Origin: a bacterium
GTDB lineage: Bacteria; Patescibacteriota; Patescibacteriia; UBA1558; S5-K13
Length of the DNA: 64,000 nt
NCBI GenBank assembly: GCA_029555085.1
Contig: JAKPTO010000026.1
Location: 37,217 to 101,216, forward strand
Reading direction: 5' to 3'
Part shown: piece after piece, positions 3,238-56,758 of the stretch
Numbering within the stretch: the stretch's first letter is position 1
Layout: every line of letters begins with the position of its first letter
Notes under the pieces: generated by a model
The model's database searches: none
Seen by the model: the letters and a program-made list of their open reading frames with translations, nothing else
What the model was told of the DNA's origin: nothing
Made by a program: the position numbers and the translations under genes

Positions 3238-5064
3238 TTAATTATAAAAACTTCTTATTATTTTATTAAAATGCTCTATTATGGTTTCTCTTTTTATTTT
3301 TAAAGTTGGTGTAAGCTCATCATGTTTTTCATCAAATTGGCGTGACACAAGATAAAAATGAACAATCTGCTCGTACCTAGAAAAACCTTTTAATAAATTA
3401 TTAATCCTATCCCTATAAAAAATTTGTATTTTATCCAAATTTAAATAACTTTTTTCATTATCAACTGCTATATTATTCAAAGAGCAATATTTTTCTATTT
3501 CCTCAAAGTCCGGAACAATTAATGCTATTAGAAATTTTTCATTATTACCGATAACAATGGATTGATTTATATACTTATCATAATTCAACACTAATTCAAT
3601 ATTTCCAGGCACAACATTTTTCCCAGTTGATAAAACTATTACTTCTTTTTTTCTTCCGATTATATTTAAAAACCCATCTTTATCCAAAAATCCCAAATCC
3701 CCAGTATAAAACCATCCGTCAGTATCTATTACTTTTTCAGTTGATTCTTTATCATTATAATATTCCTTCATTACAGAGCTACCGCGAACTAAAATTTCTT
3801 TATCATTGTTTATTTTTACTTCTAAATTTTCCAACACAAATCCAACTGTTCCAAGTTTGTATTCATTCGTTTTATTTACAGAAATAATTGGCGAAGTTTC
3901 TGTGACCCCATATCCTTCTATTATTTTTATACCGACATCTTCAAAAAATCTAGCAATTCTTTTATCCAAACTTGATCCCCCTGATATTGCTAATCTTAAA
4001 TTCCCTCCAAATATATTTCTAATTTTTCTAAAAACAATCTTGTCTAAAATACCACATAAAATTAGTAAAAAAAAATTTATTTTTTTATTGTGTCTTTTAA
4101 GTGAGTTTAATTTGCTTTGATTTTTTATTGCAAAATAAAATAAATTATTTTTAAACTTTGAGTCACTTCTTAAATTATCATGAATTTTATCAAAAATTTT
4201 CTCAAAAATTCTAGGCACAGAAATAATTACCGTTGGCTTAGCTAGTTTTATATCATCAATAAGTGTTTTTGGGCTTCTGCTATAATATATTGAAACACCT
4301 GAAACTAACGGAAGAAATTGTCCCGCTACCCTCTCTAGTACATGTGACAGTGGTAAAAATGAAAAAAATATATCATTACTACATGTAGGCGTGTATTTTA
4401 AAACATTTTCTATATTGCTCAATATATTATAATTAGTAAGTACGGCGCCTTTTGGCATGTCAGTTGTTCCAGATGTGTATATTATTGTTGTAACAAGATT
4501 TTTATCGTTTATTGGTTCTATCTTTTTATTATTTTCAACTTTTAAAATATCATCAAAATATTTAACATTTTCTTTCTCAACTTTGTCAAAGGATATTATT
4601 TGTAAATCATCTATTAAATGCTCATCAATTCCATAAAAAACATTTAATAATTTGTCGTTTGATATAAAAATTATTTTGGGTTTTGTTTGTGAAATAATGT
4701 AGTCAATATATTTAGTTCCATAAGTTGTATGAATTGGAACTAAAATTAATCCCAAATAATTACAAGCTAAGTCAACAGTAGGCCACTCCCATCTGTTTTC
4801 AGAAAAAATTACAACCTTATCTCCTTTTTGTAATTTATTCTCAACGAAATAAGAAACTAATTTTAGAATATTTTCATTTAAACTTTTATAACTAATTTTT
4901 CTATAATTACCATTTTCTATGTATGCTAAAGCAGTATTACTTGGATATGTAATAACATTTTTTTTAAAATTAAGATATATGGTATTTTGATCCATTAATT
5001 TAGGTGATTTATATTTTAATTGTACCATAATTGGCCTAAAATAAAAAGAAAAAAACGAAGTCAA
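3238..5064 (-). CDS. Long-chain fatty acid--CoA ligase (AMP-binding enzyme)
   Basis: AMP-binding signature IIYTSGTTDMPKGAVLT and GYGVTETS. Confidence 0.85.
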   Translation of the reverse strand: MTSFFSFYFRPIMVQLKYKSPKLMDQNTIYLNFKKNVITYPSNTALAYIENGNYRKISYKSLNENILKLVSYFVENKLQKGDKVVIFSENRWEWPTVDLACNYLGLILVPIHTTYGTKYIDYIISQTKPKIIFISNDKLLNVFYGIDEHLIDDLQIISFDKVEKENVKYFDDILKVENNKKIEPINDKNLVTTIIYTSGTTDMPKGAVLTNYNILSNIENVLKYTPTCSNDIFFSFLPLSHVLERVAGQFLPLVSGVSIYYSRSPKTLIDDIKLAKPTVIISVPRIFEKIFDKIHDNLRSDSKFKNNLFYFAIKNQSKLNSLKRHNKKINFFLLILCGILDKIVFRKIRNIFGGNLRLAISGGSSLDKRIARFFEDVGIKIIEGYGVTETSPIISVNKTNEYKLGTVGFVLENLEVKINNDKEILVRGSSVMKEYYNDKESTEKVIDTDGWFYTGDLGFLDKDGFLNIIGRKKEVIVLSTGKNVVPGNIELVLNYDKYINQSIVIGNNEKFLIALIVPDFEEIEKYCSLNNIAVDNEKSYLNLDKIQIFYRDRINNLLKGFSRYEQIVHFYLVSRQFDEKHDELTPTLKIKRETIIEHFNKIIRSFYN

Positions 5065-14812: not shown

Positions 14813-17800
14813 TTATTCTTCTATTGTCTCTATTGTGACTTCTGTTTCTGTTATTGTTGTTTCTGTTGTTTCCTCTGCCGAAGTTTCCTGTTCTGTGGTT
14901 GTATCTGTTTGAGTTGTGTCTATTGAGGTTTCCGTGGTTTGATTACCTGATGAGATATCATCCTCTATTGTAGTTTCTGTTGTGTCTTCTATTGGAGTTT
15001 CTTGTTCTGTGGTTGTTTCTGTTTGAGTTGTGTCTATTGAGGTTTCTGTGGTTTGATTACCTGATGAGATATTGTCCTCTGTTGTTGTTTCTGTTGTGTC
15101 TTCTATTGGAGTTTCTTCTATTAAACCCTGCTCTGTTGAAGATGAAATCAATTCTGATGTTCCATCGCTACTAAATATCATTCCCTTGTATGCTCCGAAT
15201 GAATGCCAGTCAAATATCACATCAGTTTCTTGAGTATTTTCTATCTTTATCACAAAACCATTCTTTGTAACTTCGTCTATATAATAACCGCCATTGATTA
15301 ATGCGCGTGGAGAAATCGTTATAACTGGATCATTTCTATATTCATGCTCAAACATGACTGCTGTACTTGTTGCGCCTGTTAAAATCTTTGCTTGACCAAC
15401 CGTATCACGACCTAAATCAACTAATCCCTCAACTTGCAATGCGCCAGACAATACCAAATCTTCTAATGCGTCAAGCGACATTCCAAATTGCGCTCTAATT
15501 TCATTAATTTGTTGCTGTTGTTCTTGTATTGCTGAAACCATTACTGGCGTAAATGATTCATAGTCAATTGATTTGTTTCCACTTTCATCAATATTTAAAA
15601 GTTCTGGCGCAATTTCTTCTACTTGAGTTGTTATAAATCCTAATTTATTAATTTGTGTTTCATTTTCTATCCATACGAAATTTACTGCTTCAATGTCTGT
15701 TAATTTATTAAGCGAAATTATTCCATCTAATTGATCTATTGTTGCATTTTCTACAATTTGTTCTGAAGATGGGACAGAATTATTTAATTGATTTCTTAAA
15801 TTAGTAATTTCATTATTCAATGAATCAAATCTTTGTTCTATGTTATATGAATCTATAATGCTTTGTATTTCTGAAATATTTTCATCTTTTGCTTCTAAGA
15901 CCTTAGTTGTCACCTCTTTTTCAATTTCATTCACTGTTACACTCTTATTGTTTCTTGAAATTAATACATTTATAGTTCCAAAATCTCCACTAAATGATTC
16001 AAGCGCAACTCCGACTGTTGAGTCGCCCTGATTTGCTTTCATTAAATATCCTTGTCTTGATGCACTTGTCAAAGAATCACCCGGATTAATATCTCCATTT
16101 TCATTTGAGACAAATGCTGGAATCTGACCTAAAAGCGCTACTAATTTATAATTTGGATTATTTTTGTATTCTTCTTTTGAATTTCCTATAAATCCAGGCT
16201 TGGTTGAAATAATTCCAATAATATTTGAATCACTTGATGTGGCGCACCTTGATATAGCATTGTTATTTGCAAAGTCAATACATACAACCTCTCCTGATGA
16301 AATATTTGTATTATTAGTATAAAAATATTCTGCATAGTCAGCTGCTGGTGTGTCATAACCAGTATCAGCTAAAACTAAGCCATCGGAGCTAACCGTAAAG
16401 ACATTATCCCCTTCCGAATTCTGCAAAACAAATCCCAATACTTTTTCCTTTCCAAGATTTTTTATCGTGGTTCGACCAATATAATCTACTGAAAAAAGAG
16501 TTTCTTCGTATTCCACCCTACTTTGTATCTCAAATAAATTAGCGGAAGGGTGAGCTGATGTATTTACTACTTTTAACACCGGAACATGCCCCAAGTCACT
16601 AACTATTGTAGCTGATTTAATTAATTCTATAGGTACATCCGCGATTATTTTAGATTGCGATAGTGTTAAAGGGGAAACATTATTGGTTTCATCTCTAAAT
16701 TCTAATGTCCCATATGCATATGAAGAAGAATGTGGTCTTATTGCCCAAGTAGATGTTCCTACGTGAATTTCTTCTGCCCAAAGATCAGTCCATCTATAAT
16801 CTGATGAACCAAGAGTATAGGTTAAATTTGACTCAGGAACAATATCTCGCATAGTTGATGTTCCTGTTACATTGAGTGTTCCAGCACCTGTATTTATTAC
16901 TAAATCTGTTCCGTTCCATAAAATATTTGCATCTTGATCTTCTCCGAGATAGAGAGCAGCATTATCTTCGTCTATATAAACATTACCTGTAGCAAAAGCT
17001 CGAAAATTAGCAAGATCTGCACGTGAATGACCTAACCATATCTTAGACGACGGTTGAGTGGCAAAAAAACTAGAGAGAGTATATATAAGACCATTAACTC
17101 TAAGAGCGCTACCAAAATATGAATGACCTTTTACATCTAAAGTTCCTTCTACATATAAATCATTATCATCAAGTTCAAGGGTACTAACTCCGCTATTTGA
17201 TATTGCATTATATGGTAACGCGCTTACTCCACCTATATTAAATACATTATTATTAGCAAATACTATATGACCACCTGTAGTATTTATTGTTAAATCTCCT
17301 GAAGAATCAGTTCCAAATGTTGTTGAAGTTGCAGAATTGTATCCTAGTGTCAATTGTGGTGAAGTTGAGTTTACTACATGAAGCGCGGATGACGGCGCTG
17401 TAATACCGATACCGACATTACCACCATTAAAATATGATGCACCCCTAGAATGCAGTAAAATAGTCGAGTCATTAGATGAATTTCTCATGGTAAGGGATGT
17501 ATTAGATCCGCTACGCAACAAAACTCCTCCTGAACTAGGCACAATATTTAACTGGCCAGACGCTCTAATTTCCTGATTTCCAGATGATGGGAAAAATGAT
17601 ATAGATCTAGTTTTAGTAGAATCATAAAAATAAACATCTCCAGTAACATCTAGAGTTGCTTGCGGATCATTTGTCCCAATTCCGACCCTTCCTGAATTAT
17701 AATAAATACCATTACCATATGCGTTTGGGGTCCACCGGGATGACACAATTGGCGATCCGTTTATAGAAAATCCGGCTGCATCTACTATTCCAGTTGAAGC

Positions 17801-20356
17801 AGTGATAGTTGCACGACCGCCGACTGATAAGTTATTCGTTAGTGTAGTGGCACCGTTTAAAGTTATAGTATCGTCACTATTTGCATATAAAATTCTTCCC
17901 CAATCACCATCACTGGCTCCATATTTTACAAACGCAGTTCCTCCACCCACGCCATAAGAACCCATTGGTGCGGTATAACCAGCAGCAAGATGTTCATCTG
18001 ATATAACAATATTCATTTCTCCTCCATAACCATCTACAACAAAACTTGCTATTGTATTAACATTACTATCAACTACTGTTAGCGCATACTGTGGTGTTGT
18101 GGTACCGATTCCGACGTTGCCTGATCCGACATTAACTGCTATGTTATTATAATGCATTATATCGTTGTAACCGCTAATATCTACAGCCTCATAAACTACC
18201 ATTGGTGCATCTCCCGCTAAATCATATATACCAAACTCATCGTTGCTAAACATTCCACCATTACCAATATAAAAACCTCCTTTGCTATAATCGCCACTTT
18301 CAAAACTAGCAATCATATCTGTACTTGAAACATGTAAACCGCTCAGAGGATCTGTCGTCCCTATCCCAACATTTCCTGAGTTATAGTAAATATCAGATCC
18401 ATTTGTAATCCACTGAGATGATACAATTGGCGAGCCATTTATAGAAAATCCGGCTGCATCTACTATTCCGGTTGAAGCGGTGATAGTTGCGCGACCGCCG
18501 ACTGATAGATCGCCTATAAACGAAGAAGCGCCTGATTGTAATATTTTTAATACTGTACCACCATAATAATAAGCATTCTCACTAGTATCATACACGGCTA
18601 TATAAGTATCATCACCCTTATTAATTAAACCTATTTCATCAGTTATGGCGCCAGAAACCAATGCTACTGGACCATATAAACCATTAGCAATTATCTCTGA
18701 TCCAAAATCAGCAATTCCCGTTAAAGCAGTAATAGTTACCTTGCCTCCTATTGATATATCTCCGGTAAAATTAGCTCCTGATAAAAGTGCATAAGAAGTT
18801 GAAGCAGCAGTCCACACAGGATCTAATTCTGTAATTAAACTTCCAAGTGGTGAACCATTCCAATAAAGATCTCCACCTAGATTATATAATGTATCTACTG
18901 TTACAGCTGGAGTTGAAGATGCGATATTCAAACCATTATTTGTTACTACTAATCCCATTGCGGTTGTTGTTGCAAACGAAGAACTTCCAGTTACTATTAA
19001 ACTAGCAGATGAATATAAATCTGATGATAAATTTACAGGACCGTCAAAAGTATTTATTCCCGTCCATGTATTATTATCAGATAAAGACACCCCTCCCCCA
19101 TTTTGAACTATCGTAGTTCCACCACCAATAAAATTATATACGCCCCCAGTAAAAGACCCGTCCTCCCCTTTATCTCCTTTGTCTCCTTTTTCGCCAGTAT
19201 CTCCTTTTGGTCCAGCATCTCCCTTGTCTCCTTTTTCACCTTTTACCAAAATTGTTTTTTGGATAACCTGCGTATCACCATTTGCTGTATGATAATTTTG
19301 AATTATTTGGGGTTGAACTTTGTCGGTAGCCCCGAGATAAATATTTTTTATCTCCTGCGTTTCAGCTGCATCTCTTATAAATCGAACAACGCTATCCCTA
19401 AGAACTAAATTTATTGATAAAACTTTATTCGCAAATTTTTTTGATATATTCTCAGAATAATCTCTATATTTATTTAAAGAAACAAGAGAATTAATTATTT
19501 TCTGTAAAAATGTTAGCTTAGATGAAATATTGACAGACACCTCGCTTGCGCCAAGTACTCTATGAGATGGGTTATTTTCTGTATAATAATTATCTTTTTT
19601 ATTTAAAAACGCTCTTGGGTTAAAATATGAAATCCTATCAACAACAGAATGAGCTAATTCTTTATAATTATTTTTATAGCGTTTTAATAAATTAAAATTA
19701 TTAAGTTGTGAATTTCTTAAAAATTTACCAAAATTTGTTAATTTATTTTTTATGTTTGAAAATTGATATTTGTAAGCATTGGAAAATTTCTCAGAAGAAA
19801 GTGATAAAATTCTTTCTACTTTATTTTGATTTTCTCCATAAGTACCGAGAGCAGAAGGAATAAAAAATCTCATTGTCAAAATTAATAAAAAACTTATAGC
19901 TAAAAAATTTGCCAATCCAATTAATTGATTCGGAGAATGTGGTTTTGGGGATCTAAACTTTGAAGATTTTAAATTAGAATATTTTTTAGACTTATCAAAT
20001 TTAAAAAATGTAAAAACTGACAATAAAAAATTTCTAAAAATGTTTACTATATGATAAAAAGTTTTTTTAAATTTTTCTTTATTAAAAAAATGAATTTCTG
20101 CTAAAAGTATGTCTGGTAAATTTGGTTTTCTATTAAGTGAAACATCTTCATACTGAATTTGAAAATTCATCTCACTATTCTTCTCTTCATACTCTTTCAA
20201 GTAGCTTTTTTTCGTAAACCATATTCCATCAATTTTCTCTGCTTTTAATTTTCCCTGCCTCGCGCGAAGAGATAAATATTCTTGTGAATATGAACAATAC
20301 TTTGTCGCCTGTGACAAAGTAATGTATGGTTCTATTTGTTGATTTTGTTCGTCCAT
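14813..20356 (-). CDS. Giant surface protein (1847 aa) with an N-terminal excisionase-type HTH, TM anchor, collagen-like Gly-X-Y repeats, duplicated tail-fibre-like modules, a peptidase-S74-like intramolecular chaperone domain and acidic T/E-rich C-terminal repeats
   Basis: ITLSQATKYCSYSQEYLSLRARQGKLKAEKIDGIWFTKKSYLKEY is HTH_17-like. GEKGDKGDAGPKGDTGEKGDKGDKGEDG is collagen-like. LSVGGRATITASTGIVDAAGFSINGSPIVSS occurs twice. GFITTQVEEIAPELLNIDESGNKSIDYESFTPVMVSAIQEQQQQINEI is S74-chaperone-like. Confidence 0.6.
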   Translation of the reverse strand: MDEQNQQIEPYITLSQATKYCSYSQEYLSLRARQGKLKAEKIDGIWFTKKSYLKEYEEKNSEMNFQIQYEDVSLNRKPNLPDILLAEIHFFNKEKFKKTFYHIVNIFRNFLLSVFTFFKFDKSKKYSNLKSSKFRSPKPHSPNQLIGLANFLAISFLLILTMRFFIPSALGTYGENQNKVERILSLSSEKFSNAYKYQFSNIKNKLTNFGKFLRNSQLNNFNLLKRYKNNYKELAHSVVDRISYFNPRAFLNKKDNYYTENNPSHRVLGASEVSVNISSKLTFLQKIINSLVSLNKYRDYSENISKKFANKVLSINLVLRDSVVRFIRDAAETQEIKNIYLGATDKVQPQIIQNYHTANGDTQVIQKTILVKGEKGDKGDAGPKGDTGEKGDKGDKGEDGSFTGGVYNFIGGGTTIVQNGGGVSLSDNNTWTGINTFDGPVNLSSDLYSSASLIVTGSSSFATTTAMGLVVTNNGLNIASSTPAVTVDTLYNLGGDLYWNGSPLGSLITELDPVWTAASTSYALLSGANFTGDISIGGKVTITALTGIADFGSEIIANGLYGPVALVSGAITDEIGLINKGDDTYIAVYDTSENAYYYGGTVLKILQSGASSFIGDLSVGGRATITASTGIVDAAGFSINGSPIVSSQWITNGSDIYYNSGNVGIGTTDPLSGLHVSSTDMIASFESGDYSKGGFYIGNGGMFSNDEFGIYDLAGDAPMVVYEAVDISGYNDIMHYNNIAVNVGSGNVGIGTTTPQYALTVVDSNVNTIASFVVDGYGGEMNIVISDEHLAAGYTAPMGSYGVGGGTAFVKYGASDGDWGRILYANSDDTITLNGATTLTNNLSVGGRATITASTGIVDAAGFSINGSPIVSSRWTPNAYGNGIYYNSGRVGIGTNDPQATLDVTGDVYFYDSTKTRSISFFPSSGNQEIRASGQLNIVPSSGGVLLRSGSNTSLTMRNSSNDSTILLHSRGASYFNGGNVGIGITAPSSALHVVNSTSPQLTLGYNSATSTTFGTDSSGDLTINTTGGHIVFANNNVFNIGGVSALPYNAISNSGVSTLELDDNDLYVEGTLDVKGHSYFGSALRVNGLIYTLSSFFATQPSSKIWLGHSRADLANFRAFATGNVYIDEDNAALYLGEDQDANILWNGTDLVINTGAGTLNVTGTSTMRDIVPESNLTYTLGSSDYRWTDLWAEEIHVGTSTWAIRPHSSSYAYGTLEFRDETNNVSPLTLSQSKIIADVPIELIKSATIVSDLGHVPVLKVVNTSAHPSANLFEIQSRVEYEETLFSVDYIGRTTIKNLGKEKVLGFVLQNSEGDNVFTVSSDGLVLADTGYDTPAADYAEYFYTNNTNISSGEVVCIDFANNNAISRCATSSDSNIIGIISTKPGFIGNSKEEYKNNPNYKLVALLGQIPAFVSNENGDINPGDSLTSASRQGYLMKANQGDSTVGVALESFSGDFGTINVLISRNNKSVTVNEIEKEVTTKVLEAKDENISEIQSIIDSYNIEQRFDSLNNEITNLRNQLNNSVPSSEQIVENATIDQLDGIISLNKLTDIEAVNFVWIENETQINKLGFITTQVEEIAPELLNIDESGNKSIDYESFTPVMVSAIQEQQQQINEIRAQFGMSLDALEDLVLSGALQVEGLVDLGRDTVGQAKILTGATSTAVMFEHEYRNDPVITISPRALINGGYYIDEVTKNGFVIKIENTQETDVIFDWHSFGAYKGMIFSSDGTSELISSSTEQGLIEETPIEDTTETTTEDNISSGNQTTETSIDTTQTETTTEQETPIEDTTETTIEDDISSGNQTTETSIDTTQTDTTTEQETSAEETTETTITETEVTIETIEE
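14816..15130 (-). repeat. In-frame tandem repeat of about 114 nt (38-aa unit ETPIEDTTETT.EDNISSGNQTTETSIDTTQT.TTTEQ, about 2.6 copies) encoding the C-terminus of the giant protein
   Basis: Near-identical consecutive nucleotide blocks are visible in the sequence and in the translated C-terminus. Confidence 0.8.
17600..18580 (-). repeat. Two tandem ~680-nt modules inside the giant gene, with a near-identical core of more than 60 nt
   Basis: gatgacacaattggcgatccgtttatagaaaatccggctgcatctactattccagttgaagcagtgatagttgcacgaccgccgactgata at about 17741-17830 recurs at about 18420-18510. The offset is 679 nt. Confidence 0.75.
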
Positions 20357-21521: not shown

Positions 21522-21912
21522 GGGGATGTATCAATTTGATGCATAAAAAATTTGTTCTTTGGCAAGTCAAGTTTTGCGAAACTTGTAAAAAACGCTAAAT
21601 CATAAATGTCAAATCATTTATAGAAAAAGTTAAAGTTGCATTTAGTAATCCAGCTTTCAACTTTTCAATTGCTTAATCTTTTTTAAAAATTAAGCCATCC
21701 TCTATCTTCATACTCGATGGGGATTTACGAGGGTGTTATATTTTCGAGTTATACTATGGTAATTTCCATGTGCCATAGTGAAAACTTATGGAATATATAA
21801 ATAATATTTTTCTTATTTATAGTTATTTATAGAATTTTAAAAATAAGATAAACTTGTAGATAAAGAATGAATTGTTAGGCAGACAGGGGTTCAAATCCCC
21901 TCATCTCCACCA
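21522..21912 (+). ncRNA. ssrA: Transfer-messenger RNA (tmRNA, ssrA)
   Basis: The 5' GGGGAUG pairs with the 3' CAUCUCC acceptor strand. The 3' end GGGGTTCAAATCCCCTCATCTCCACCA is a T-arm, acceptor and CCA. A PK1-like TTTGCGAAAC element is present. Candidate tag frame is GCA TTT AGT AAT CCA GCT TTC AAC TTT TCA ATT GCT TAA. Confidence 0.8.
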
Positions 21913-23195: not shown

Positions 23196-23272
23196 GGAGC
23201 GGTAGTTCAGTTGGTTAGAACGCCTGCCTGTCACGCAGGAGGTCGAGGGTTCGAGTCCCTTCCGTTCCGCCA
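23196..23272 (+). tRNA. tRNA-Asp (anticodon GUC), CCA encoded
   Basis: Manual fold: GGAGCGG acceptor, anticodon stem-loop CCTGC-CTGTCAC-GCAGG, T-arm GAGGG-TTCGAGT-CCCTT, 77 nt. Confidence 0.85.
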
Positions 23273-33634: not shown

Positions 33635-36600
33635 TTATTTTTTATATAAAGTGGAAACAAATCTTTGCATTCTGTCATTCAATACATCTAAAGCAATTCT
33701 TGTACTTTCTGGTGCGTTTTTTGGTATGCTCTTTAATGTGAGTTCCCAAAATTTTATCTCAAAATTATTTAACTTACTACTACCTGTTCTTTCCAGCTTT
33801 ATATCGCTTAATAATTTAAATGCTTTATCGTGTACAATGTCTTTATTAGCACTCTCCGTAATTATTCTATATAATTCAGTACCTCGTTCTCGGCTATAAA
33901 AAAATGTTCCAACTGAACTAACATCTGATGTCTGTTTAATAATGGAACCATTTTCATCAAATACTTGTTTAAGTGTTCCGCTTCTTCCCGCCTCCTTAAA
34001 AGTAACGAGCTTTGTATAATCATCGAGCCATTTCTCTGTTATTGTTCCTGTATTTGTTTTTATAATTTCTATATTTGGCTCGGAAATCAATTCTTGAAAA
34101 TTATTCTCTGTAATTTGCTCTAAGCCGGGACTTTGTGGATCAAGATCTGCATAATATTCCCCATGGTCTTTTTGAATTTCCAACACCCGATTATTACCAA
34201 CATTCGTTTCAAATTTAACTGGAATATTGTCTTCAACATCTTTCAATGCCTCTTCCAACTCAGAAAATGTATTAACTCTTTTAACTCCTAGTATCTCTGT
34301 TTGATTTTGAGCTATAGGCACACGATCTAATATATCTTCGACAGGTGTCCGTCCTGATATACCTTTGGTAGGCACATGATCTGGCTCAATAGTCAAATTT
34401 TGAACTGAGGATACTTGGTCTGATATATCTTCTATATTTGACTCAGAAATCAATTCTTGAAAATTATTCTCTGTAATTTGCTCTAAACCAGGGAGATTAG
34501 GATTAAAGTCTGTGTAATATTCTCCATTGTCCTCTATAATCCGTACAACATTACCACCAATTTCTACATCAGCCGAAGCACCTGCCTCTTTAAACTGAAA
34601 TACTTCTTTCAAATCAGAAAAATCCCTAACCACTGGAACCTCTGATGTTTCTATAGGTACATTAGTCAATGTATCTGGGGTGACTTCTATACTTTCTGTA
34701 GGTACATGATCTAACATATCTTCAGTGGGTACATGATCTGGTTTAATAACTGGGATTTCTGTATTACCATTATTAAACTCATCTTGCAACCTCGCTATTT
34801 GAAAATTTAACTCCTCTCCAGTATTTTGCTGTTGTGAAAGTAATTCTCGAGTTGCATTTAGTTCCTCAGATATCTTCGCTTGTATATTGGATGGAATATT
34901 TGGATCATCTAGCATTTCTTCTAATCTGGTAATTGATAATTTTGACTTTATTATATCATCATTTAACTCAAAATATTTACTTTGTAGCTCTTCTATTTGC
35001 TCAGGATAATTTGACTTAACTATATCTTCTACGGGTAGCACTTCTCTTACATTTGTTGGTCTGACAATTTCTGAAACATTAGGACCATGTTTGGGCTTAA
35101 TGACGCCCATTACATTATCTACATAATGTTTGTAAAAACTTTCATAAGACTTGGGTTTGACAAAGGCAAAAACCTCGTTAGTTTCTGGATCAACGACAAC
35201 TCTTGCTCCCGGCGCAACAACATTTGCATCAAAATTTTTAAGAATCAATGGTTCGCCATTAGGTCCAGAAGTAACAAGTGTCATTTTTGAACCACGAGGC
35301 ATGCTTATACCCAAAGTTTCAGAAACACTAGAGCCCTTAGCTACTGGAACGCCTTGATCTGCCAACTCTTGAATACGTTGAGGGTTCAAACCCTTAATAT
35401 CTTGAAAATTAGATACATCTGATTTTTTTGGAGAAAAACTTTGTGATGCCTCATTTATATCATCCGCTCGACTTGTTGAGATAACCTGATCTTTTTTACC
35501 AAAAACAGAGTTCTTCAAATTCTCAAAAGACTTTCCTAATCTCTCCATTCTTGAAACTATATCAGCATAACTTACAAAATTATCTTTCATGTTTTCCAAT
35601 ACATTACCCTGAGTAAATGTTTTGGTAAAACATTGTACCATGTTATCCACACTTGCACCAGATGTTTGTATTCCTGATAAAGCTTGCGTTCCCATACCAA
35701 GAGCCATTAATAATTCCCCCCAAGCTCTCATCATGGTAGTTTTTTTATCAAAACCTTTTAATTTTCTAACATCACTATGTTTTTTTAATTTATCATTTTC
35801 TACATAAAAACTTGATTCATATCGTTTTCCAGATAATCCATAATATGTTTCTAAAAACATTGTTTTAAATGCATCTCCAAGATATTGATGTGCTTTCATT
35901 TTTTCGCCAACCTTATTCCAGGAATATTCCTTTTGATATTTCAATGCTGATTTATCTAATTTTCCACCAAATGCAAATATTCCATACATAGCACCTCGAA
36001 GTCCAGCCGCACCTATCCCGCCACCAAAAACCATAGCCGTATTAAGTGCATCTTTTACAAGTATACTTCCATTTACTGTTCCTTGTATATAATCTTGCAA
36101 AATATAATCTATTTTTTTTGACCTTTGTTTTCTTAAATCATTTTTTGATTCCAAATTCGTAAGTAGAACTTTGTTTAATCTATTTCTCATTGTCATCTGA
36201 TCATGATCAGAAATAATATACAATAACTTTTCTTTATCTGTTAATGAACCTTCGTTAAACTTTTTTTCTATTTCTTGTCTTTTTTCTTTTGGTAAATCAT
36301 AATAATTCTGAGATCTGGCATTCTTTATCATTTCATTATATTGCATTGCTTTTTCTTTTACATCATCTACAGAAATTTTTTCATTTTTTATAAAATTTTC
36401 TCTAATTTTATTATTCTCCATTGAAAGAGTTTTTATTTTACGCTCTAATTCTTCTCTTTCTGTTTCATCTTTTGTGTTTTTATATATCTCTACATATCTA
36501 GATATTGCAGCAACTCTTCTTTTGTAATTATCATCTTGGTAAAGCTTCTGAAATTTTTCCTTATTAGAAGAAATCAACTCTGCTAAATCGCTTGTTTTCT

Positions 36601-38758
36601 TTTCTGCCTCAACCCTATCTTTCTTTGTTTCACTTTTTTGATCAAAATATTTATACACATCTGTTCTCTTGCCAAGAGCAAAATTAATTTTTCCTCCACT
36701 TATTTTATCAAGTCCATGCGCAAGTCCAGCGCCAATCCAATCACCAATGGCTTTAACACCAAACATTGAACCGATAATATTATATATTCCCTTACCTGTT
36801 GCTGCGCATAAGGCCCTCTTTTCTTCTTTTTCTTCTGGTGTTTTTGGTTTCTTAAAAATCAAATCAAAAGTTTTCTTAACCCTATCCTTAAATTTAACTT
36901 TTATCTGTTCTTCTTTTAACTCTTCATTGATAATATGTTCTTCCGGCGTATTAGATTGAATTTCTTTTTCTGATTCAAAATTATTGTAAGTAGATGTCCA
37001 TTTTATTTCTTGTCCCCATTCTGGACTGGTATGGGTAGATGTCCATTTTGCTTCCTGTCTCTCTCCTTGACTCGTATTAGTTTCCCATTGTTGTTCTTGA
37101 TTAGTATTAGATATTGTCTCTGGTTTTATTTCTTTTATTCCAAGTACATTGCTTATATATGTATTTGTATTTTCAAGAAGACTTGGTGCTATTTTTGTCA
37201 CAAAATTTACAATAAAAGACTCATTACCCTCCCTACCCTCATCTTCTACTCTATCCTTAGCTTCTAAAAATTTTCTTACCTCAATAATCTGATTATCGCT
37301 TAGTCTACTCAACTTGTACTTTAAAATATCAACTCCGGTATTTTCTAATTCTAAATGTTTATTAAAAAATTTTTCCTCTGTTTTCGGCAAATCGTCTTCA
37401 AAGACTTGTTTTTCTTTAATAACCTCCTCTTCTGATTTTTCAAAATTCTCTGATTTTGAAGTCTCTTCTTTTTCTGATTTAATCTTTTCTTCTGAATTTC
37501 CTAACAACTCTTTAACTTTATCTCTTAAACCGTATGCTCTAGTAACGAAATTAATATGATAGCTTTCGTGTCTCACTTGATCAATTATCTGCTTCAATTC
37601 CTCTGGACTATATTTTTCTTTGGTACCATCTATTGTCCCAATTTCTTCTATGGCAGAAAATAATTCCTCAAAATTTTTAGCATTGCTAATTTTTGCTTTT
37701 TGATTTTCTAGTAACTCTACAACCTTATCTCTTAAACCGTATGTTCTAGTAACATAAGTATTGCGAAGATCTCCATTCCTTACTTGGTTAATGATCTGCT
37801 TCAATTCCTCTGGACTATATTTTTCTTTGGTACCATCTATTGTCCCAATTTCTTCTATGGCAGAAAATAATTCCTCAAAATTTTTAGCATTGCTAATTTT
37901 TGCTTTCCTATCTTCTTCTGTTTCTATTGTATTTTTTTTATTTTTCCCCTCAATTTCTTTTTTAGATTCACTTTCTCTCATCATTTCAATGAGTTTTTTT
38001 GCATGCATTTTAGCCCATTGAATTTGTCCTTCATTATTTTCATAATCTAAACCTGCTTCTGGGTTAGGATGATTATCTTTTTCCCTATTTTCTATATCAT
38101 GTTGTTTCCAACTCATAAGAATTTTATACGCAATAGCTGTTTCTAAATCATTTGTAGTATCTCTATACATGTCATAATGTTTGTAATAATCATTAAAAAT
38201 GCCTTTATAATCTATACCCGTTTCCATATCTGGATTTTCAAAAAAATTCTTATACACTTTTTCAACTTCAGATTCCATATATTTATAATCTTCTGGATTG
38301 TCTGGTAATTCTGTTTTTATAACTCTCTCTGGAACCTGATCTAAAACATTGAGATCTTTTTCTGATTCAAATTTTTCATCTATTTTTTCTTGTCCATCTT
38401 CGGGGATTTCTTTCGCATACTCGTCTGATGCTGATATAATTTCTTTTGCCCTTTTTATTCTCTTATTAATCTCAGGGACTAATTTTCTTAAATCTTCTAA
38501 ATAATTAAAAAAAAGAGAACGATCTTCATCAAATGTTTCTTGGTCACTCGATATAAGTATATATTGATCTGCACTAAATGATATATCCGACCTAATTTCT
38601 TCGAGTAATTCTTCACCCCTATTTAATATTTTCTCTAAAGCTTGTTTCTTAAATCTTATGAATCCATCTGGGTTATTATTATCTATAAATTCTCTGTATT
38701 GCTCATTCTTATCAACTAAATTTTTTAAATTCTCTGTAGGTTGTTTTATTTTATCCAT
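33635..38758 (-). CDS. Giant hypothetical protein (1707 aa) with internal about 70-aa and about 100-aa repeats and glycine-zipper hydrophobic segments
   Basis: A single uninterrupted ORF. KAKISNAKNFEELFSAIEEIGTIDGTKEKYSPEELKQII occurs twice. The C-terminus has duplicated GEYY.D..P..PGLEQITENNFQELISE modules. Two Gly-rich segments (GxxxG runs) are present. Confidence 0.55.
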   Translation of the reverse strand: MDKIKQPTENLKNLVDKNEQYREFIDNNNPDGFIRFKKQALEKILNRGEELLEEIRSDISFSADQYILISSDQETFDEDRSLFFNYLEDLRKLVPEINKRIKRAKEIISASDEYAKEIPEDGQEKIDEKFESEKDLNVLDQVPERVIKTELPDNPEDYKYMESEVEKVYKNFFENPDMETGIDYKGIFNDYYKHYDMYRDTTNDLETAIAYKILMSWKQHDIENREKDNHPNPEAGLDYENNEGQIQWAKMHAKKLIEMMRESESKKEIEGKNKKNTIETEEDRKAKISNAKNFEELFSAIEEIGTIDGTKEKYSPEELKQIINQVRNGDLRNTYVTRTYGLRDKVVELLENQKAKISNAKNFEELFSAIEEIGTIDGTKEKYSPEELKQIIDQVRHESYHINFVTRAYGLRDKVKELLGNSEEKIKSEKEETSKSENFEKSEEEVIKEKQVFEDDLPKTEEKFFNKHLELENTGVDILKYKLSRLSDNQIIEVRKFLEAKDRVEDEGREGNESFIVNFVTKIAPSLLENTNTYISNVLGIKEIKPETISNTNQEQQWETNTSQGERQEAKWTSTHTSPEWGQEIKWTSTYNNFESEKEIQSNTPEEHIINEELKEEQIKVKFKDRVKKTFDLIFKKPKTPEEKEEKRALCAATGKGIYNIIGSMFGVKAIGDWIGAGLAHGLDKISGGKINFALGKRTDVYKYFDQKSETKKDRVEAEKKTSDLAELISSNKEKFQKLYQDDNYKRRVAAISRYVEIYKNTKDETEREELERKIKTLSMENNKIRENFIKNEKISVDDVKEKAMQYNEMIKNARSQNYYDLPKEKRQEIEKKFNEGSLTDKEKLLYIISDHDQMTMRNRLNKVLLTNLESKNDLRKQRSKKIDYILQDYIQGTVNGSILVKDALNTAMVFGGGIGAAGLRGAMYGIFAFGGKLDKSALKYQKEYSWNKVGEKMKAHQYLGDAFKTMFLETYYGLSGKRYESSFYVENDKLKKHSDVRKLKGFDKKTTMMRAWGELLMALGMGTQALSGIQTSGASVDNMVQCFTKTFTQGNVLENMKDNFVSYADIVSRMERLGKSFENLKNSVFGKKDQVISTSRADDINEASQSFSPKKSDVSNFQDIKGLNPQRIQELADQGVPVAKGSSVSETLGISMPRGSKMTLVTSGPNGEPLILKNFDANVVAPGARVVVDPETNEVFAFVKPKSYESFYKHYVDNVMGVIKPKHGPNVSEIVRPTNVREVLPVEDIVKSNYPEQIEELQSKYFELNDDIIKSKLSITRLEEMLDDPNIPSNIQAKISEELNATRELLSQQQNTGEELNFQIARLQDEFNNGNTEIPVIKPDHVPTEDMLDHVPTESIEVTPDTLTNVPIETSEVPVVRDFSDLKEVFQFKEAGASADVEIGGNVVRIIEDNGEYYTDFNPNLPGLEQITENNFQELISESNIEDISDQVSSVQNLTIEPDHVPTKGISGRTPVEDILDRVPIAQNQTEILGVKRVNTFSELEEALKDVEDNIPVKFETNVGNNRVLEIQKDHGEYYADLDPQSPGLEQITENNFQELISEPNIEIIKTNTGTITEKWLDDYTKLVTFKEAGRSGTLKQVFDENGSIIKQTSDVSSVGTFFYSRERGTELYRIITESANKDIVHDKAFKLLSDIKLERTGSSKLNNFEIKFWELTLKSIPKNAPESTRIALDVLNDRMQRFVSTLYKK

Positions 38759-53235: not shown

Positions 53236-54427
53236 AATGAAAGTCTAAATAAAAATTATATAATGATTTTATTTTTAAATATTCTATCTCTTTTCTTAAC
53301 AACCTTCTGTTGCGTGGTGAATATTTACCAAATATAAAATCTGTTAAAATACGGAAAAAATCTTCTGATAATTTTTTTATTTGTTCTGAGTTATTGATTT
53401 GTGGTTTATCTTTTATAATTTTTTGAAATTGGTAGTTAAAATTTTTTTCTGGATGTCCCATAATCCTTCTCAGTAAATACTTTTTTTTACTTAAATTATA
53501 ATTTTTATATTTTAAAATACTTTTCCAACCAGCAATAATACGCTTAATATATGATTTTTCTAAACTAATAATTCCTGAATTAAAGCAGTAGCCTAAAAAA
53601 GAAAAATTTTCTTTTGCATCACCAATAAATAATTTGCTATTATTTATTGTTAAATTTCTAATATTCAAATCTTTGATAATTTCTAATTTTAATTTATTTA
53701 GCTTGTCTATGTTATTATCAAAAATACCTATATCATCTCCTATTCTTATATAAAATGAACATTGTTTTTGATATTTATGATCAAGGTCTGTTAAATATAA
53801 ATTATTAAAAAGTGCTATTAGTGGAACACCCTGGACAAGACCTATATCAGGTGCTTCTATCTTACCATTTTTATATATTTTATTAAAAATAAATAATTTT
53901 AATAAATCTAATATTTTTCTATCTTCAAAAATGTTTTCCAGTTGTGAGTATAAAACATTCTTATCAATCAAGTCAGAATAGTTTTCCAAATCTAACACTA
54001 ATGCTTTGTCTGTAGAAAAATTTTTCCTATATCTATGGCAAAAATTTTTTGCTGCAAAATATGGTGGCTTGCCCGGCCTATATGAAAACAATCTTTTTGA
54101 AAAAACTTTTTCAAATTCTGGTAATAAAACTCTATAAATTGCCTGTGCTTTTATACGATCTTTTATATTATAAATAAAAATATCCCTGAATTTCTCGGGA
54201 TTATTTTTTTTAGGAATTGAAACAATAAGTGCTGGCTCAATTTCCCTATTTTCAACTAATTCTTTTTGACAAATATCTATAAGCTCCTTTGAATTTAAAT
54301 CTCTGTCTTGTATTGAAATATTATCCAAACCGTGATATCTAAAACTTTTACTATCTATAGAAAATTTTTCCACTATATCTAAATAAGCAGATCGAATATT
54401 ATCATAAGATACAATTTTATTAAACAT
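53210..54427 (-). CDS. Stand-alone reverse transcriptase (retron/defence-associated RT-like), IGDD active-site variant
   Basis: RT motifs 0-7: SYDNIRSAYLDI; IPKKNNPEKFRDIF...IKDRIKAQAIYRVLLPEFE; FSYRPGK; ALVLDLENYSDLID; GLVQGVPLIALFNNLYLTDLD; YIRIGDDIGIF; FLGYCF. There is no endonuclease or maturase domain and no room for group II intron RNA. Confidence 0.75.
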   Translation of the reverse strand: MFNKIVSYDNIRSAYLDIVEKFSIDSKSFRYHGLDNISIQDRDLNSKELIDICQKELVENREIEPALIVSIPKKNNPEKFRDIFIYNIKDRIKAQAIYRVLLPEFEKVFSKRLFSYRPGKPPYFAAKNFCHRYRKNFSTDKALVLDLENYSDLIDKNVLYSQLENIFEDRKILDLLKLFIFNKIYKNGKIEAPDIGLVQGVPLIALFNNLYLTDLDHKYQKQCSFYIRIGDDIGIFDNNIDKLNKLKLEIIKDLNIRNLTINNSKLFIGDAKENFSFLGYCFNSGIISLEKSYIKRIIAGWKSILKYKNYNLSKKKYLLRRIMGHPEKNFNYQFQKIIKDKPQINNSEQIKKLSEDFFRILTDFIFGKYSPRNRRLLRKEIEYLKIKSLYNFYLDFHYERNKRTN

Positions 54428-54433
54428 ATTTTT

Positions 54434-54615
54434 AAAAATCGTCCTCAGGATATATAATAAAAATACTATATATTAATAAATCTAATGAAGACCCCCGTCC
54501 ACAAACTGGTTACAACCGTTTCCATTTTAATTAATTCGATATTAACGAATATAAAAAATTAAAACTAAAACGATTATTAATATCTCCTAAAATAGGAGTT
54601 TTGAGGATGATTTTT
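54434..54615 (-). other. Noncoding region bounded by a 14-bp inverted repeat, directly upstream of the RT gene; candidate msr/msd-like ncRNA locus
   Basis: AAAAATCGTCCTCA (54434-54447) and TGAGGATGATTTTT (54602-54615) are reverse complements with one mismatch, 154 nt apart. An internal hairpin CTCCT-AAAAT-AGGAG lies at 54584-54598. The GC-rich segment gacccccgtccacaaactggttacaaccgtttcc is also present. The proximal arm lies 10 nt from the RT start codon. Confidence 0.35.
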
Positions 54616-54694
54616 AAAAGTACATAATATATTATAGCATGTCAATAAAGCGTATGTAAAGAATAAATATATAATTTTGTGATATAATTAATCT

Positions 54695-56758
54695 ATGAAT
54701 CTAGATACAACACTTGATAAAATCTACGGAATAGGTCCAACAATCTATAAAAAATTACAAAAAATCGGATTAAATACAATATCTGATGCTATTTTTTATT
54801 ATCCATTTAGATATGAAGATTTTTCCCATTTAAAACAAATAAATGAGCTTGTAAATGAAGAATCTGCCACTATAAAAGGAAAAATCATACTTTTAAACAA
54901 TAAGAGATCTCCTAGAAAAAAAATGAATATCACTGAAATGCTTTTAGGAGATGATTCCGGACAAATTCAGATAATTTGGTTTAATCAACCATATATTAAA
55001 AATATATTACAAATTGGAGATGAGATATTTGTTTCAGGTGTTGTAAAAAAATCACTTTTGGGATTATCACTTATAAATCCAAATTATGAAAAAACTAATA
55101 GAGACACATCACACACTGCAAGAATTATTCCTATATATCCATCAACAGAGCATTTATCACAGAAACAACTTAGATACATAATAAAACAATCCTTGTCTTG
55201 TATAAATGAATTACATGAAAGGTTACCAAGTCAAATTATTAAAAAAGAAAATTTAATAGAAATAAAAGAGGCAATAAAACAAATTCACTTTCCAGATAAT
55301 TATAAAAAATTAGATCTTGCAAAAAAAAGATTATCATTTGATGAAATATTTTTATTATCATGTTTATCAAAATTTATTAAAAAACAAAATATTGAATTAA
55401 GCGCTCCTCAAATTAATTTCAAGGAAAAACAGATAAAAGATTTAGTAAAAAAAATTCCATTTAAATTAACAGAAGATCAAAGAAAGGCAACCTGGCAAAT
55501 TCTAAAAGATATTAGCCACAAAATTCCAATGAATAGACTTCTTGAAGGCGATGTAGGAAGTGGAAAGACAATTGTTTCTTTTATCTGCGCTTACAATGTA
55601 ATCTTGAACAAATATCAAGCAATTTTAATGTCTCCTACTCAGATTTTAACAAAACAACACTTTGAAAATGCTGTAAAATTTTTCAAGGACTATGATATTA
55701 ATATTTTACTTTTTACAAACTCTGACAGATTATTATTTAATGGAAAAAAACAATTAGCACAAAAATTAACAAAAAAAGAAATTAATAAGTTTGTCAAAAA
55801 ATCTGATTTTATAATAGGAACTCATTCTTTAATTCAGCAAAATGTAGAATTCAAAAATATTGGGCTCATAATAATTGACGAGCAACACAGATTCGGAGTT
55901 AAGCAGCGTCAAGAATTAACAAAAAAATCAGATATTAGTCCACACTTTTTATCAATGACTGCAACTCCAATTCCAAGATCTCTAGCGCTTACAATTTATG
56001 GAGATTTAGATATTTCAAAAATTTTACAAAAACCAGCAAACAGAAAAAAAATTATTACAAAATTTGTATATTCTCGCAACAGAACAAAAGCTTATGAATT
56101 TATTTATAACCAGATCCAAAACGGCAGACAAGTTTTTGTTGTGTGTCCACTTATAAATGAATCGGATAAATTAGGAGTAAAATCCGTAATGAGTGAATAT
56201 GAAAAATTAAGCAACGACATTTTTCCAAATTTAAAAATAGAATATTTACATGGAAAAATGAAAGAAACAGAAAAGCAAAAAATTCTAAAAAGTTTTTCTG
56301 ACAATGAAACAAAAATTTTAGTATCAACTTCTGTTATTGAGGTTGGAATTGATTTTCCAAATGTAACAATAATGATAATTGAAGGTGCTGATAGATTTGG
56401 ATTGGCATCACTCCATCAATTTCGAGGTCGTGTTGGTCGCGGAGAACATCAATCATTTTGCTTTTTATTTTCTGAATCAAACTCAGAAAAATCCCGTAAA
56501 CGTTTAGAAATATTAACAAAAACAGATAATGGATTTGAACTCGCAGAATATGATTTAAAATTTCGTGGAAGTGGAGATTTGTATGGAATAAAACAATCAG
56601 GATTTATGAATGGAGTGAAAATTGCAGATTTATCAGATTTAGAATTAATCAAAAAATGCAATATTTGGGCTCAATATATTTTTGAAAAAGGTCTTGAAAA
56701 ATTCCCTCAAATAAAAAAAGAGATAGAATTACTATCTTCTGATATTCACTTGGAATAA
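54695..56758 (+). CDS. recG: ATP-dependent DNA helicase RecG
   Basis: N-terminal wedge/OB domain; Walker A GDVGSGKT; DEQH box IIDEQHRFG; TATPIPRSL; QFRGRVGRG. Confidence 0.9.
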   Translation: MNLDTTLDKIYGIGPTIYKKLQKIGLNTISDAIFYYPFRYEDFSHLKQINELVNEESATIKGKIILLNNKRSPRKKMNITEMLLGDDSGQIQIIWFNQPYIKNILQIGDEIFVSGVVKKSLLGLSLINPNYEKTNRDTSHTARIIPIYPSTEHLSQKQLRYIIKQSLSCINELHERLPSQIIKKENLIEIKEAIKQIHFPDNYKKLDLAKKRLSFDEIFLLSCLSKFIKKQNIELSAPQINFKEKQIKDLVKKIPFKLTEDQRKATWQILKDISHKIPMNRLLEGDVGSGKTIVSFICAYNVILNKYQAILMSPTQILTKQHFENAVKFFKDYDINILLFTNSDRLLFNGKKQLAQKLTKKEINKFVKKSDFIIGTHSLIQQNVEFKNIGLIIIDEQHRFGVKQRQELTKKSDISPHFLSMTATPIPRSLALTIYGDLDISKILQKPANRKKIITKFVYSRNRTKAYEFIYNQIQNGRQVFVVCPLINESDKLGVKSVMSEYEKLSNDIFPNLKIEYLHGKMKETEKQKILKSFSDNETKILVSTSVIEVGIDFPNVTIMIIEGADRFGLASLHQFRGRVGRGEHQSFCFLFSESNSEKSRKRLEILTKTDNGFELAEYDLKFRGSGDLYGIKQSGFMNGVKIADLSDLELIKKCNIWAQYIFEKGLEKFPQIKKEIELLSSDIHLE

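Follow-up and report, generated by a model that had tools for sequence, protein, structure and literature searches.

In our reading of the sequences, the inverted repeat located in front of a reverse transcriptase (RT) gene in the Patescibacteria DNA analyzed here (the window, the whole stretch of 64,000 nucleotides) is helix P1, the closing stem of a pseudoknotted RNA of about 195 nt encoded on the RT strand. We assign a probability of roughly 0.7 to the full reading, in which P1 is part of a dedicated noncoding RNA (ncRNA) belonging to a four-part system that also comprises a group II intron-like RT, an ABC-like protein, and a PLD protein. That the RNA is the cognate structured RNA of this RT is very probable, and the odds that it is reverse-transcribed, judged by analogy with retrons, DRT2, DRT9, and DRT10, appear to be even. 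The RNA co-occurs exclusively with one RT family and the two genes downstream of it.

RTs paired with an ncRNA have precedents. The DRT2, DRT9, and DRT10 enzymes use an adjacent upstream structured ncRNA as a template (PMC12632851), and retrons and these DRT systems are further covered in PMC9226505. Retrons, DRT2, DRT9, and DRT10 each revealed unexpected modes of DNA synthesis, and several are now genome-engineering tools. The system described here pairs a defined pseudoknotted RNA with a group II intron-like RT, whose class has until now been described as lacking an RNA partner, and it spans a large part of the uncultured Patescibacteria, together with two unusual membrane proteins. Full-text literature searches turned up no paper on this RT family, nor on its RNA or operon. 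With Rfam 15, nothing reached gathering scores in the whole window or in 12 related loci, and a search of the region at E-values up to 10 returned just a chance-level snoRNA match (E = 8.6).

Extent and fold of the RNA

The initial annotation described a 14-bp inverted repeat with arms AAAAATCGTCCTCA (54434-54447) and TGAGGATGATTTTT (54602-54615), separated by 154 nt. Both sequences are found at these positions and the spacing is correct, but the length had been understated, as a repeat finder delineated arms of 21 nt (54427-54447 and 54602-54622) that are complementary at 19 of 21 positions and lie 154 nt apart. Because the repeat is longer than first noted, its proximal arm reaches the A of the RT start codon and does not end 10 nt short of the AUG, as had been proposed. 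A scan of the whole window for repeats of this class (21 nt, at least 19 matches, arms 100-250 nt apart) detected this one only, and none was present in 10 composition-preserving shuffles of the window. The folding of both strands had been suggested as a check, and both gave lower energies than shuffled sequences, the minus strand by the larger amount: −53.3 kcal/mol (z = −6.4) was predicted for the minus-strand RNA from 54622 to 54428, vs. −43.1 kcal/mol (z = −5.4) for the plus strand of the same region.

The coordinates of all elements are given in Table 1. From the 5′ end, the helices and junctions are ordered P1, P2, P3, P4, J4/5, and P5, and a 6-bp pseudoknot connects J2/3 with the P3 loop. 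The CTCCT-AAAAT-AGGAG hairpin and the GC-rich stretch that had been pointed out between the arms were confirmed at 54584-54598 and 54490-54509, and both belong to the structured RNA, as P2 and P4, respectively. The 12 pairs of P1 evaluated in alignment A4 were 97.5% paired, with compensatory changes in 11 of them. The corresponding values were 93.6% and three of four pairs for P2, and 91.5% and nine of ten pairs for P5. P3 measures 55-71 nt across homologs, mainly 65-68 nt. Since the alignment of its outer stem was too inconsistent for column-wise covariation, that stem was assessed by per-sequence folds; when P3 was folded by itself, 37 of the 41 homologs had 15 or more pairs around the loop. 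P4 is hypervariable in both length and sequence across the family, the inserts being about 20 nt at the shortest and more than 130 nt at the longest. The conserved single-stranded segment that follows, J4/5, is inferred to be a candidate template or protein-contact segment.

Table 1 Features of the RNA, its promoter-like site, and the operon in the window, followed by the parts of the tandem locus L008 (locus coordinates)
Feature	Position	Strand	Remarks
Promoter-like site for the RNA/RT transcript	54631..54660	−	sigma-70-like, 11/12 consensus matches
−35 box TTTACA	54660-54655	−	18-nt spacer to the −10 box
−10 box TATAAT	54636-54631	−	TG-extended
Whole structured ncRNA, ~195 nt	54428..54622	−	predicted start to base before RT AUG
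P1 5′ arm UACUUUUAAAAAUCAUCCUCA	54602..54622	−	repeat finder and covariation
P2 hairpin CUCCU-AUUUU-AGGAG	54584..54598	−	preceded by conserved AAAAC of J1/2
Pseudoknot 5′ strand AUAUUA (J2/3)	54578..54583	−	partner 54544-54539
P3 long hairpin, ~66 nt	54512..54577	−	7-nt loop UUAAUAU carries the pseudoknot 3′ strand, 54544-54539
P3 tip stem	54550-54546 / 54538-54534	−	all 4 pairs covary
P4 short GC-rich hairpin GUGGACGGGGGUCUUC	54486..54503	−	matches the GC-rich stretch of the initial annotation
J4/5 conserved single-stranded segment CAUUAGAUUUAUUA	54474..54487	−	family consensus C-R-U-U-G-G-A-U-U-U-A-A-U
P5 hairpin AUAUAUAGUA-UUUU-UAUUAUAUAU	54450..54473	−	covariation
P1 3′ arm UGAGGACGAUUUUUAAAAAUA	54427..54447	−	extends through the A of the RT AUG
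Reverse transcriptase, 405 aa	53210..54427	−	group II intron-like; motif C R-I-G-D-D
ABC exporter-like protein, 571 aa	51520..53235	−	transmembrane and nucleotide-binding domain; overlaps RT stop by 26 nt
Membrane-anchored tandem PLD (Nuc/NucT-like) protein, 404 aa	50340..51554	−	N-terminal membrane helix
L008 tRNA-Tyr	3417-3501		
L008 RNA copy 1	3519-3707		
L008 terminator	3718-3737		plus T tract
L008 RNA copy 2	3822-4003		

Transcription from the promoter-like site is predicted to start on the minus strand at about 54624-54622, that is, at the base of P1 and the first base of the distal arm. In 35 of the 44 homologs, a −10-like box precedes the RNA at a distance of 0-27 nt, which is a weak test in AT-rich DNA. 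Shine-Dalgarno sites precede only 1 of the 43 long ORFs in the window; the purine-rich P1 3′ arm is therefore not simply a ribosome-binding site. The possibility that this G-rich arm is a Shine-Dalgarno sequence masked by an anti-SD-like 5′ arm was also considered, and was weakened by the same count and by the spacing of 11-15 nt. Several genes, including recG, carry TGnTATAAT only 5-7 nt before their ATG (54677-54697 in the window, and others), a proximity that suggests leaderless mRNAs.

Conservation, covariation, and displaced copies

An RT-first survey, in which one genome per GTDB species was scanned, yielded 57 loci. Almost every locus carries a 14-nt segment that stops 6-35 nt short of the RT ATG and has its complement 165-300 nt upstream. 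The arms differ between species and remain complementary, as in AAAAUCAUCCUCAA / UUGGGGGUGAUUUU and CACUCAUUCCCUAA / UUAGGGAGUGAGUG, and in the further diverged pairs GGAUCGCUCCCUGA / UUGGGGAGCGGUUU and GAUAACUACUUCUA / UAGAAGUAGUUAUC. When 18 upstream regions were aligned with MAFFT, without any structure model, the RNAalifold consensus recovered P1, P2, the P3 tip, and P5, and 21 of its 30 pairs showed compensatory changes.

A covariance model (R1) was built from this 18-sequence alignment and used to realign its 44 best matches. Standard pairs filled 94.7% of the helix cells in the resulting alignment, vs. 39-47% in controls in which the 3′ partners had been slid by 1-3 columns; compensatory changes affected 27 of 30 pairs, vs. 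13-19 of 30 in the slid controls, and the covariation score was 0.70, vs. about 0.12. Because this alignment was fitted to the structure of R1, and is biased to that extent, more weight is given to the MAFFT result and to the pseudoknot. The pseudoknot helix lies outside R1; over the same 44 sequences it was 98.4% paired, with compensatory changes in all 6 pairs, and slid controls reached 18-53%. Its two strands change together, as in AUAUCA:UGAUAU, AUGCCG:CGGCAU, GCAUUA:UAAUGC, and GUGUUA:UAACAC, and in the window AUAUUA (54583-54578) pairs with UAAUAU (54544-54539). The covariation test in orthologous loci that the initial annotation had called for was thus strongly positive, and its proposal of a structured ncRNA closed by the repeat, upstream of the adjacent RT gene and on the same strand, is supported. 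An all-against-all column search for additional tertiary pairs gave no clean helix and was dominated by clade composition effects and G-U tolerance.

The strand of the RNA, which could not be told from the window's arms in the initial annotation, was settled by comparison across loci. R1 scored 131 bits on the RT strand of the window and 20.8 bits on the opposite strand. Across the helix cells of the 44 homologs there were 99 G-U and 22 A-C oppositions, an excess that also points to the RT strand.

R1 detected the RNA in loci from all major clades of the RT family. It gave no matches in the three most distant operons (L071-L073), of which only L071 and L072 display a P1/P2/pseudoknot plan that can be read by eye. 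An RNA-first pattern scan of metagenome contigs returned 11 matches; six were confirmed by R1, all directly upstream of the RT gene, and the other five were chance matches that R1 did not recognize as this RNA.

The RNA is not always a single copy adjoining the RT gene. In L008 (3371-4003), the order is promoter, tRNA-Tyr, RNA copy 1, ATGTTTCGCTAG, terminator, promoter, RNA copy 2, and RT, ATGTTTCGCTAG being a three-codon remnant. Since copy 1 has its own intrinsic terminator, it constitutes an independent ncRNA gene, which is probably co-transcribed with the tRNA-Tyr. Tandem copies are also present in L013, L029, L036, and L057; those of L036 (924-1513) and L057 (3393-3989) share 76-83% identity, with P4 accounting for most of the differences. 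The 5′ arm of copy 2 in L036 is perfectly complementary to the 3′ arm of copy 1, and the arms of copy 2 oppose each other with four A-C oppositions, which hints that the two copies may pair with one another. Three paralogous type IV pilin-like genes are found in L002 (794-3992), and two of them separate the RNA (1805-1987) from the RT gene (4001) by 2 kb.

The reverse transcriptase and its operon

Profile scores and a structural match place the protein as a free-standing group II intron-like RT. RVT_1 was its sole Pfam domain, and the NCBIfam model for group II RT/maturases (TIGR04416) scored 125 bits, under its cut-off of 300. With PADLOC, the generic RT model reached 132 bits, followed by UG26 (107), RT-Cas1 (101), UG17 (86), and UG27 (61); the UG26, UG17, and UG27 matches are partial and well below member-level scores, vs. 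125-132 bits for the group II models. The PADLOC retron models RT_IX and RT_II-A scored 23 and 21 bits. UG38, the UG group borne by CPR bacteria, which from the accession numbering presumably has a PADLOC model, was not among the PADLOC matches to this RT. When compared with the sequences of solved structures, the RT scored 113 bits with the GsI-IIC RT, 94 with Cas6-RT-Cas1, 50 with DRT9, and 46 with DRT2; weaker matches were the RT of a diversity-generating retroelement (DGR; 43), G2L4 (37), and retron RTs (24-32). An AlphaFold model based on a 30-sequence alignment had a pLDDT of 90.5, and its best Foldseek match, over the full length, was the GsI-IIC RT (TM 0.79-0.80), followed by G2L4 (0.71) and DRT9 (0.70).

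About 186 homologs of the RT, of roughly 401 aa, are detectable, and all those with a named source come from Patescibacteria (Falkowbacteria, Magasanikbacteria, and others). In favor of a competent enzyme, D146 and G230-D231-D232, the catalytic residues, do not vary in the family; motif C reads R(I/V)GDD family-wide in place of YADD. Motif 7 is FLGY, the form of group II RTs, and not the VTG of retron RTs. Ser388 and Tyr390 near the C-terminus, as well as Tyr31 in a low-confidence loop, are also invariant (alignment A1); by analogy with the C-terminal Ser/Tyr of DRT10, these are possible candidates for priming residues.

A homolog of the 571-aa protein is encoded downstream of the RT in 57/57 loci. 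This protein is of a very divergent ABC exporter type, with marginal Pfam scores. Walker A is kept and Walker B reads hhhhD-N in at least 95% of members, the catalytic Glu being replaced by Asn; no conserved ABC signature motif was found across the family. A homolog of the 404-aa PLD protein follows in every locus with enough sequence, usually with overlapping stop and start codons. Its PLD domains are closest to the Nuc/NucT nucleases, MitoPLD/Zucchini, DrmC, and DpdK, and both of its motifs are conserved, the first in the canonical form (HxKxxxxD) and the second as HxHxxxxD, with HxH replacing HxK. In a PLD-first search, the three distant members that were looked up (485-491 aa) all belonged to the same RT-ABC-PLD operon in housekeeping surroundings.

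The genes neighboring the operon are housekeeping genes, such as recG, radA, and those for rubrerythrin, ribosomal proteins, and GMP synthase, and the RT was found on a single IMG/VR viral contig; a defense role is therefore not indicated. A viral origin, also considered, was rejected on the latter count. In one clade, the 23S rRNA gene begins about 400 nt after the PLD gene (L029:8468-9206 and L030:8488-9215). Several genomes harbor two paralogous RNA-RT-ABC-PLD systems from different clades. PHAI01000003.1 carries both L006 and L030, L012 is paired with L042 and L036 with L049, and the two systems of one genome lie about 110 kb apart on the same scaffold.

Alternative explanations and a proposed mechanism

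Regulation in cis is the main alternative to a dedicated ncRNA. A purely cis-acting leader, either a riboswitch or a translational operator bound by the RT, would never be reverse-transcribed; in its ligand- or RT-bound fold, P1 would close over the start region and control the translation of RT, ABC, and PLD. Group II intron RTs do bind a stem-loop covering their own start codon, and here the P1 3′ arm enters the AUG. Moreover, the RNA lies in the 5′ UTR at most loci, the P1-closed junction with its pseudoknot and near-invariant junction nucleotides is aptamer-like, and the operon encodes an ABC-type protein. However, a riboswitch is always located in the 5′ UTR of the gene it regulates, on which its expression platform acts; in L008, one copy stands alone after a tRNA and is closed by a terminator of its own, so that no gene is left for it to control, and the RNA of L002 lies 2 kb and two genes away from the RT. 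Also at odds with a leader are the tandem copies with divergent P4, the 20 to >130 nt range of the P4 insert, the rarity of Shine-Dalgarno sites (1/43 genes), by which the G-rich arm is not obviously a ribosome-binding site, and the exclusive linkage to one RT family in the RT-first, RNA-first, and PLD-first searches. A leader of this kind is, on balance, unlikely.

The initial annotation had seen the signature of a retron ncRNA. The arms would then be a1/a2, the interior would be msr-msd, and the RT would prime from the 2′-OH of a branching G to produce msDNA. The arrangement is indeed that of a retron insofar as terminal inverted repeats close a structured RNA directly upstream of the RT gene and on its strand, a variable hairpin (P4) lies beside conserved ones, and effector genes follow the RT in a tripartite or quadripartite layout comparable to the tripartite retron scheme with accessory genes (PMC7736814). 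The signature itself was not borne out. The RT belongs to a different clade, retron RTs scoring 24-32 bits vs. 113 for the group II RT (TM 0.79), and its motif 7 is FLGY. The columns following the 5′ arm read A(A/C)AAC and lack the conserved G at which a retron would branch, and the conserved pseudoknot is a non-retron feature. The suggested search for retron msr elements gave no Rfam msr match in the window or the 12 related loci. We know of no listed retron type with an ABC-like protein and a tandem PLD protein as effectors. We consider a retron to be very improbable.

It is likewise very improbable that the RNA is a functionless remnant of group II intron domains I-IV left in front of a domesticated RT, even though group II intron RTs are the nearest relatives of this enzyme; the likelihood is, if anything, slighter than for a retron. 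Neither Intron_gpII nor group-II-D1D4 of Rfam matched the window or the 12 loci, and the next gene overlaps the RT stop, leaving no room for domains V-VI. Compensatory changes persist across RTs only 36-40% identical to that of the window, a sign that the fold is still under selection. A regulatory element of divergent recG and RT promoters had also been proposed. A DNA operator, or a chance palindrome, would fit the divergent intergenic position and the AT-rich outer ends of the arms. That element is refuted, since recG adjoins the RT in 1 of 57 loci and the RNA travels with the RT, and the chance that the repeat is an operator or a chance palindrome is close to nil: the repeat is unique in the window and absent from its shuffles, its arms change sequence between species and stay complementary, and the G-U pairs and the strand-asymmetric model score point to an RNA. 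A diversity-generating retroelement, which would have a template repeat and a near-identical variable repeat in a target gene, was rejected as well: no stretch of the RNA exceeding 14 nt recurs in the window, and the DGR RT scored 43 bits.

The best reading, reached by analogy, is thus that of a new RT-RNA-effector system, with the RNA as scaffold and perhaps template, that would resemble retrons and DRT2/9/10 and be a member of neither. Among the nearest known systems are the DRT10 (UG17, formerly G2L3) and DRT9 defense systems. In these systems as here, a free-standing RT without an extra enzymatic domain has a structured ncRNA of 140-200 nt just upstream in its operon, with four stem-loops on a closing stem. 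RNA and RT co-evolve, and the locus also encodes a membrane protein; the DRT10 RNA itself is described as a central stem bearing four stem-loops (PMC12632851). The scores for UG26 (107 bits) and UG17 (86 bits) and the DRT9 TM value of 0.70 go in the same direction. In contrast, the RT described here matches group II intron models at least as well, the gene order is RNA-RT-ABC-PLD rather than RNA-SLATT-RT, and the RNA, in which a pseudoknot covaries, gave no match to a described family. The system also lies outside defense islands and is restricted to Patescibacteria. Protein priming and tandem-repeat cDNA are features of DRT10 and DRT9 in this comparison.

The RT also resembles the G2L enzymes, in that fingers/palm, thumb, and C-terminal domain are of the group II type and intron RNA is absent. 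G2L RTs are defined by that absence and have not been described with a cognate ncRNA (PMC8632793). The named G2L4 is distant, however, with just 37 bits and a TM of 0.71, and motif C is (I/V)GDD here. The likeness to the telomerase RNA core is formal only: both have an enclosing helix (P1), a pseudoknot, and a conserved single-stranded segment, here 3′ of the stable P4, but the order of the elements differs and the RT was not TERT-like by any test run.

Under the four-part reading, transcription of the operon would yield the RNA as its 5′ portion, and some genomes would additionally produce it as a molecule of its own. The RNA would fold into a P1-closed multi-helix junction locked by the pseudoknot between J2/3 and the P3 loop, and the RT would bind it in this form. 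If the analogy with retrons and DRT2/9/10 holds, the RNA might provide the template for a defined cDNA, and perhaps the primer context as well. The leading candidates for the template would be J4/5, the single-stranded segment that follows the stable P4 hairpin, and the variable insert of P4 itself; a U-rich or A-rich bulge in P3 is a further candidate. The RNP or its cDNA would control the two membrane proteins. With some 20 bp of duplex running up to the AUG, P1 would also set the level of RT translation through its folding or cleavage, and it probably restricts this level as long as the helix is neither opened nor cleaved. A template function would make the system a new RT-RNA mechanism; otherwise, the RNA would be a new class that controls an RT operon. 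The covarying structure provides exact boundaries and testable mutants, which makes direct synthesis and assay feasible.

A more specific version, which we regard as doubtful, and somewhat more so than a leader, is a telomerase- or DRT10-like RNP, housekeeping-like across Patescibacteria and frequently present as two paralogs in a genome, with J4/5 as the template and a product gating the ABC-like and PLD proteins. P1 would act as the enclosing helix, next to the pseudoknot, P4 as the template-boundary hairpin, and J4/5 as a short template that would be copied, perhaps repeatedly and perhaps with protein priming from Ser388 or Tyr390. The product might gate a non-hydrolyzing ABC-like protein and a PLD nuclease, for instance in the handling of incoming DNA. 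Direct repeats of the A-B-A′ type, which would mark a template of the telomerase or DRT10 kind, showed a marginal enrichment in J4/5: the mean longest repeat was 3.86, vs. 3.57 in shuffled sequences, and 6 of 500 shuffles were as high, the sequences compared being mutually related. If correct, this version would add a fourth class, by mechanism, to the bacterial RT-RNA systems, and its group II-like RT would bridge intron RTs and the UG/telomerase branch.

The RT of the window is also encoded by a contig deposited at ENA (L070; NODE_291, 93,755 bp), the match of protein P0001 to it covering 95% of the query at 100% identity. The public annotation of that contig differs from the window: recG is split into four pieces and the RT has 393 aa; in the window, recG is a single ORF of 687 aa (54695-56758) and the RT has 405 aa. 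These differences may stem from sequence errors (coverage is about 1.8x) or from the use of another gene caller. The window further contains a tmRNA gene (21522-21912, 91 bits), a tRNA gene (23196-23269), and two very large minus-strand ORFs, at 14813-20356 (1847 aa) and 33635-38758 (1707 aa).
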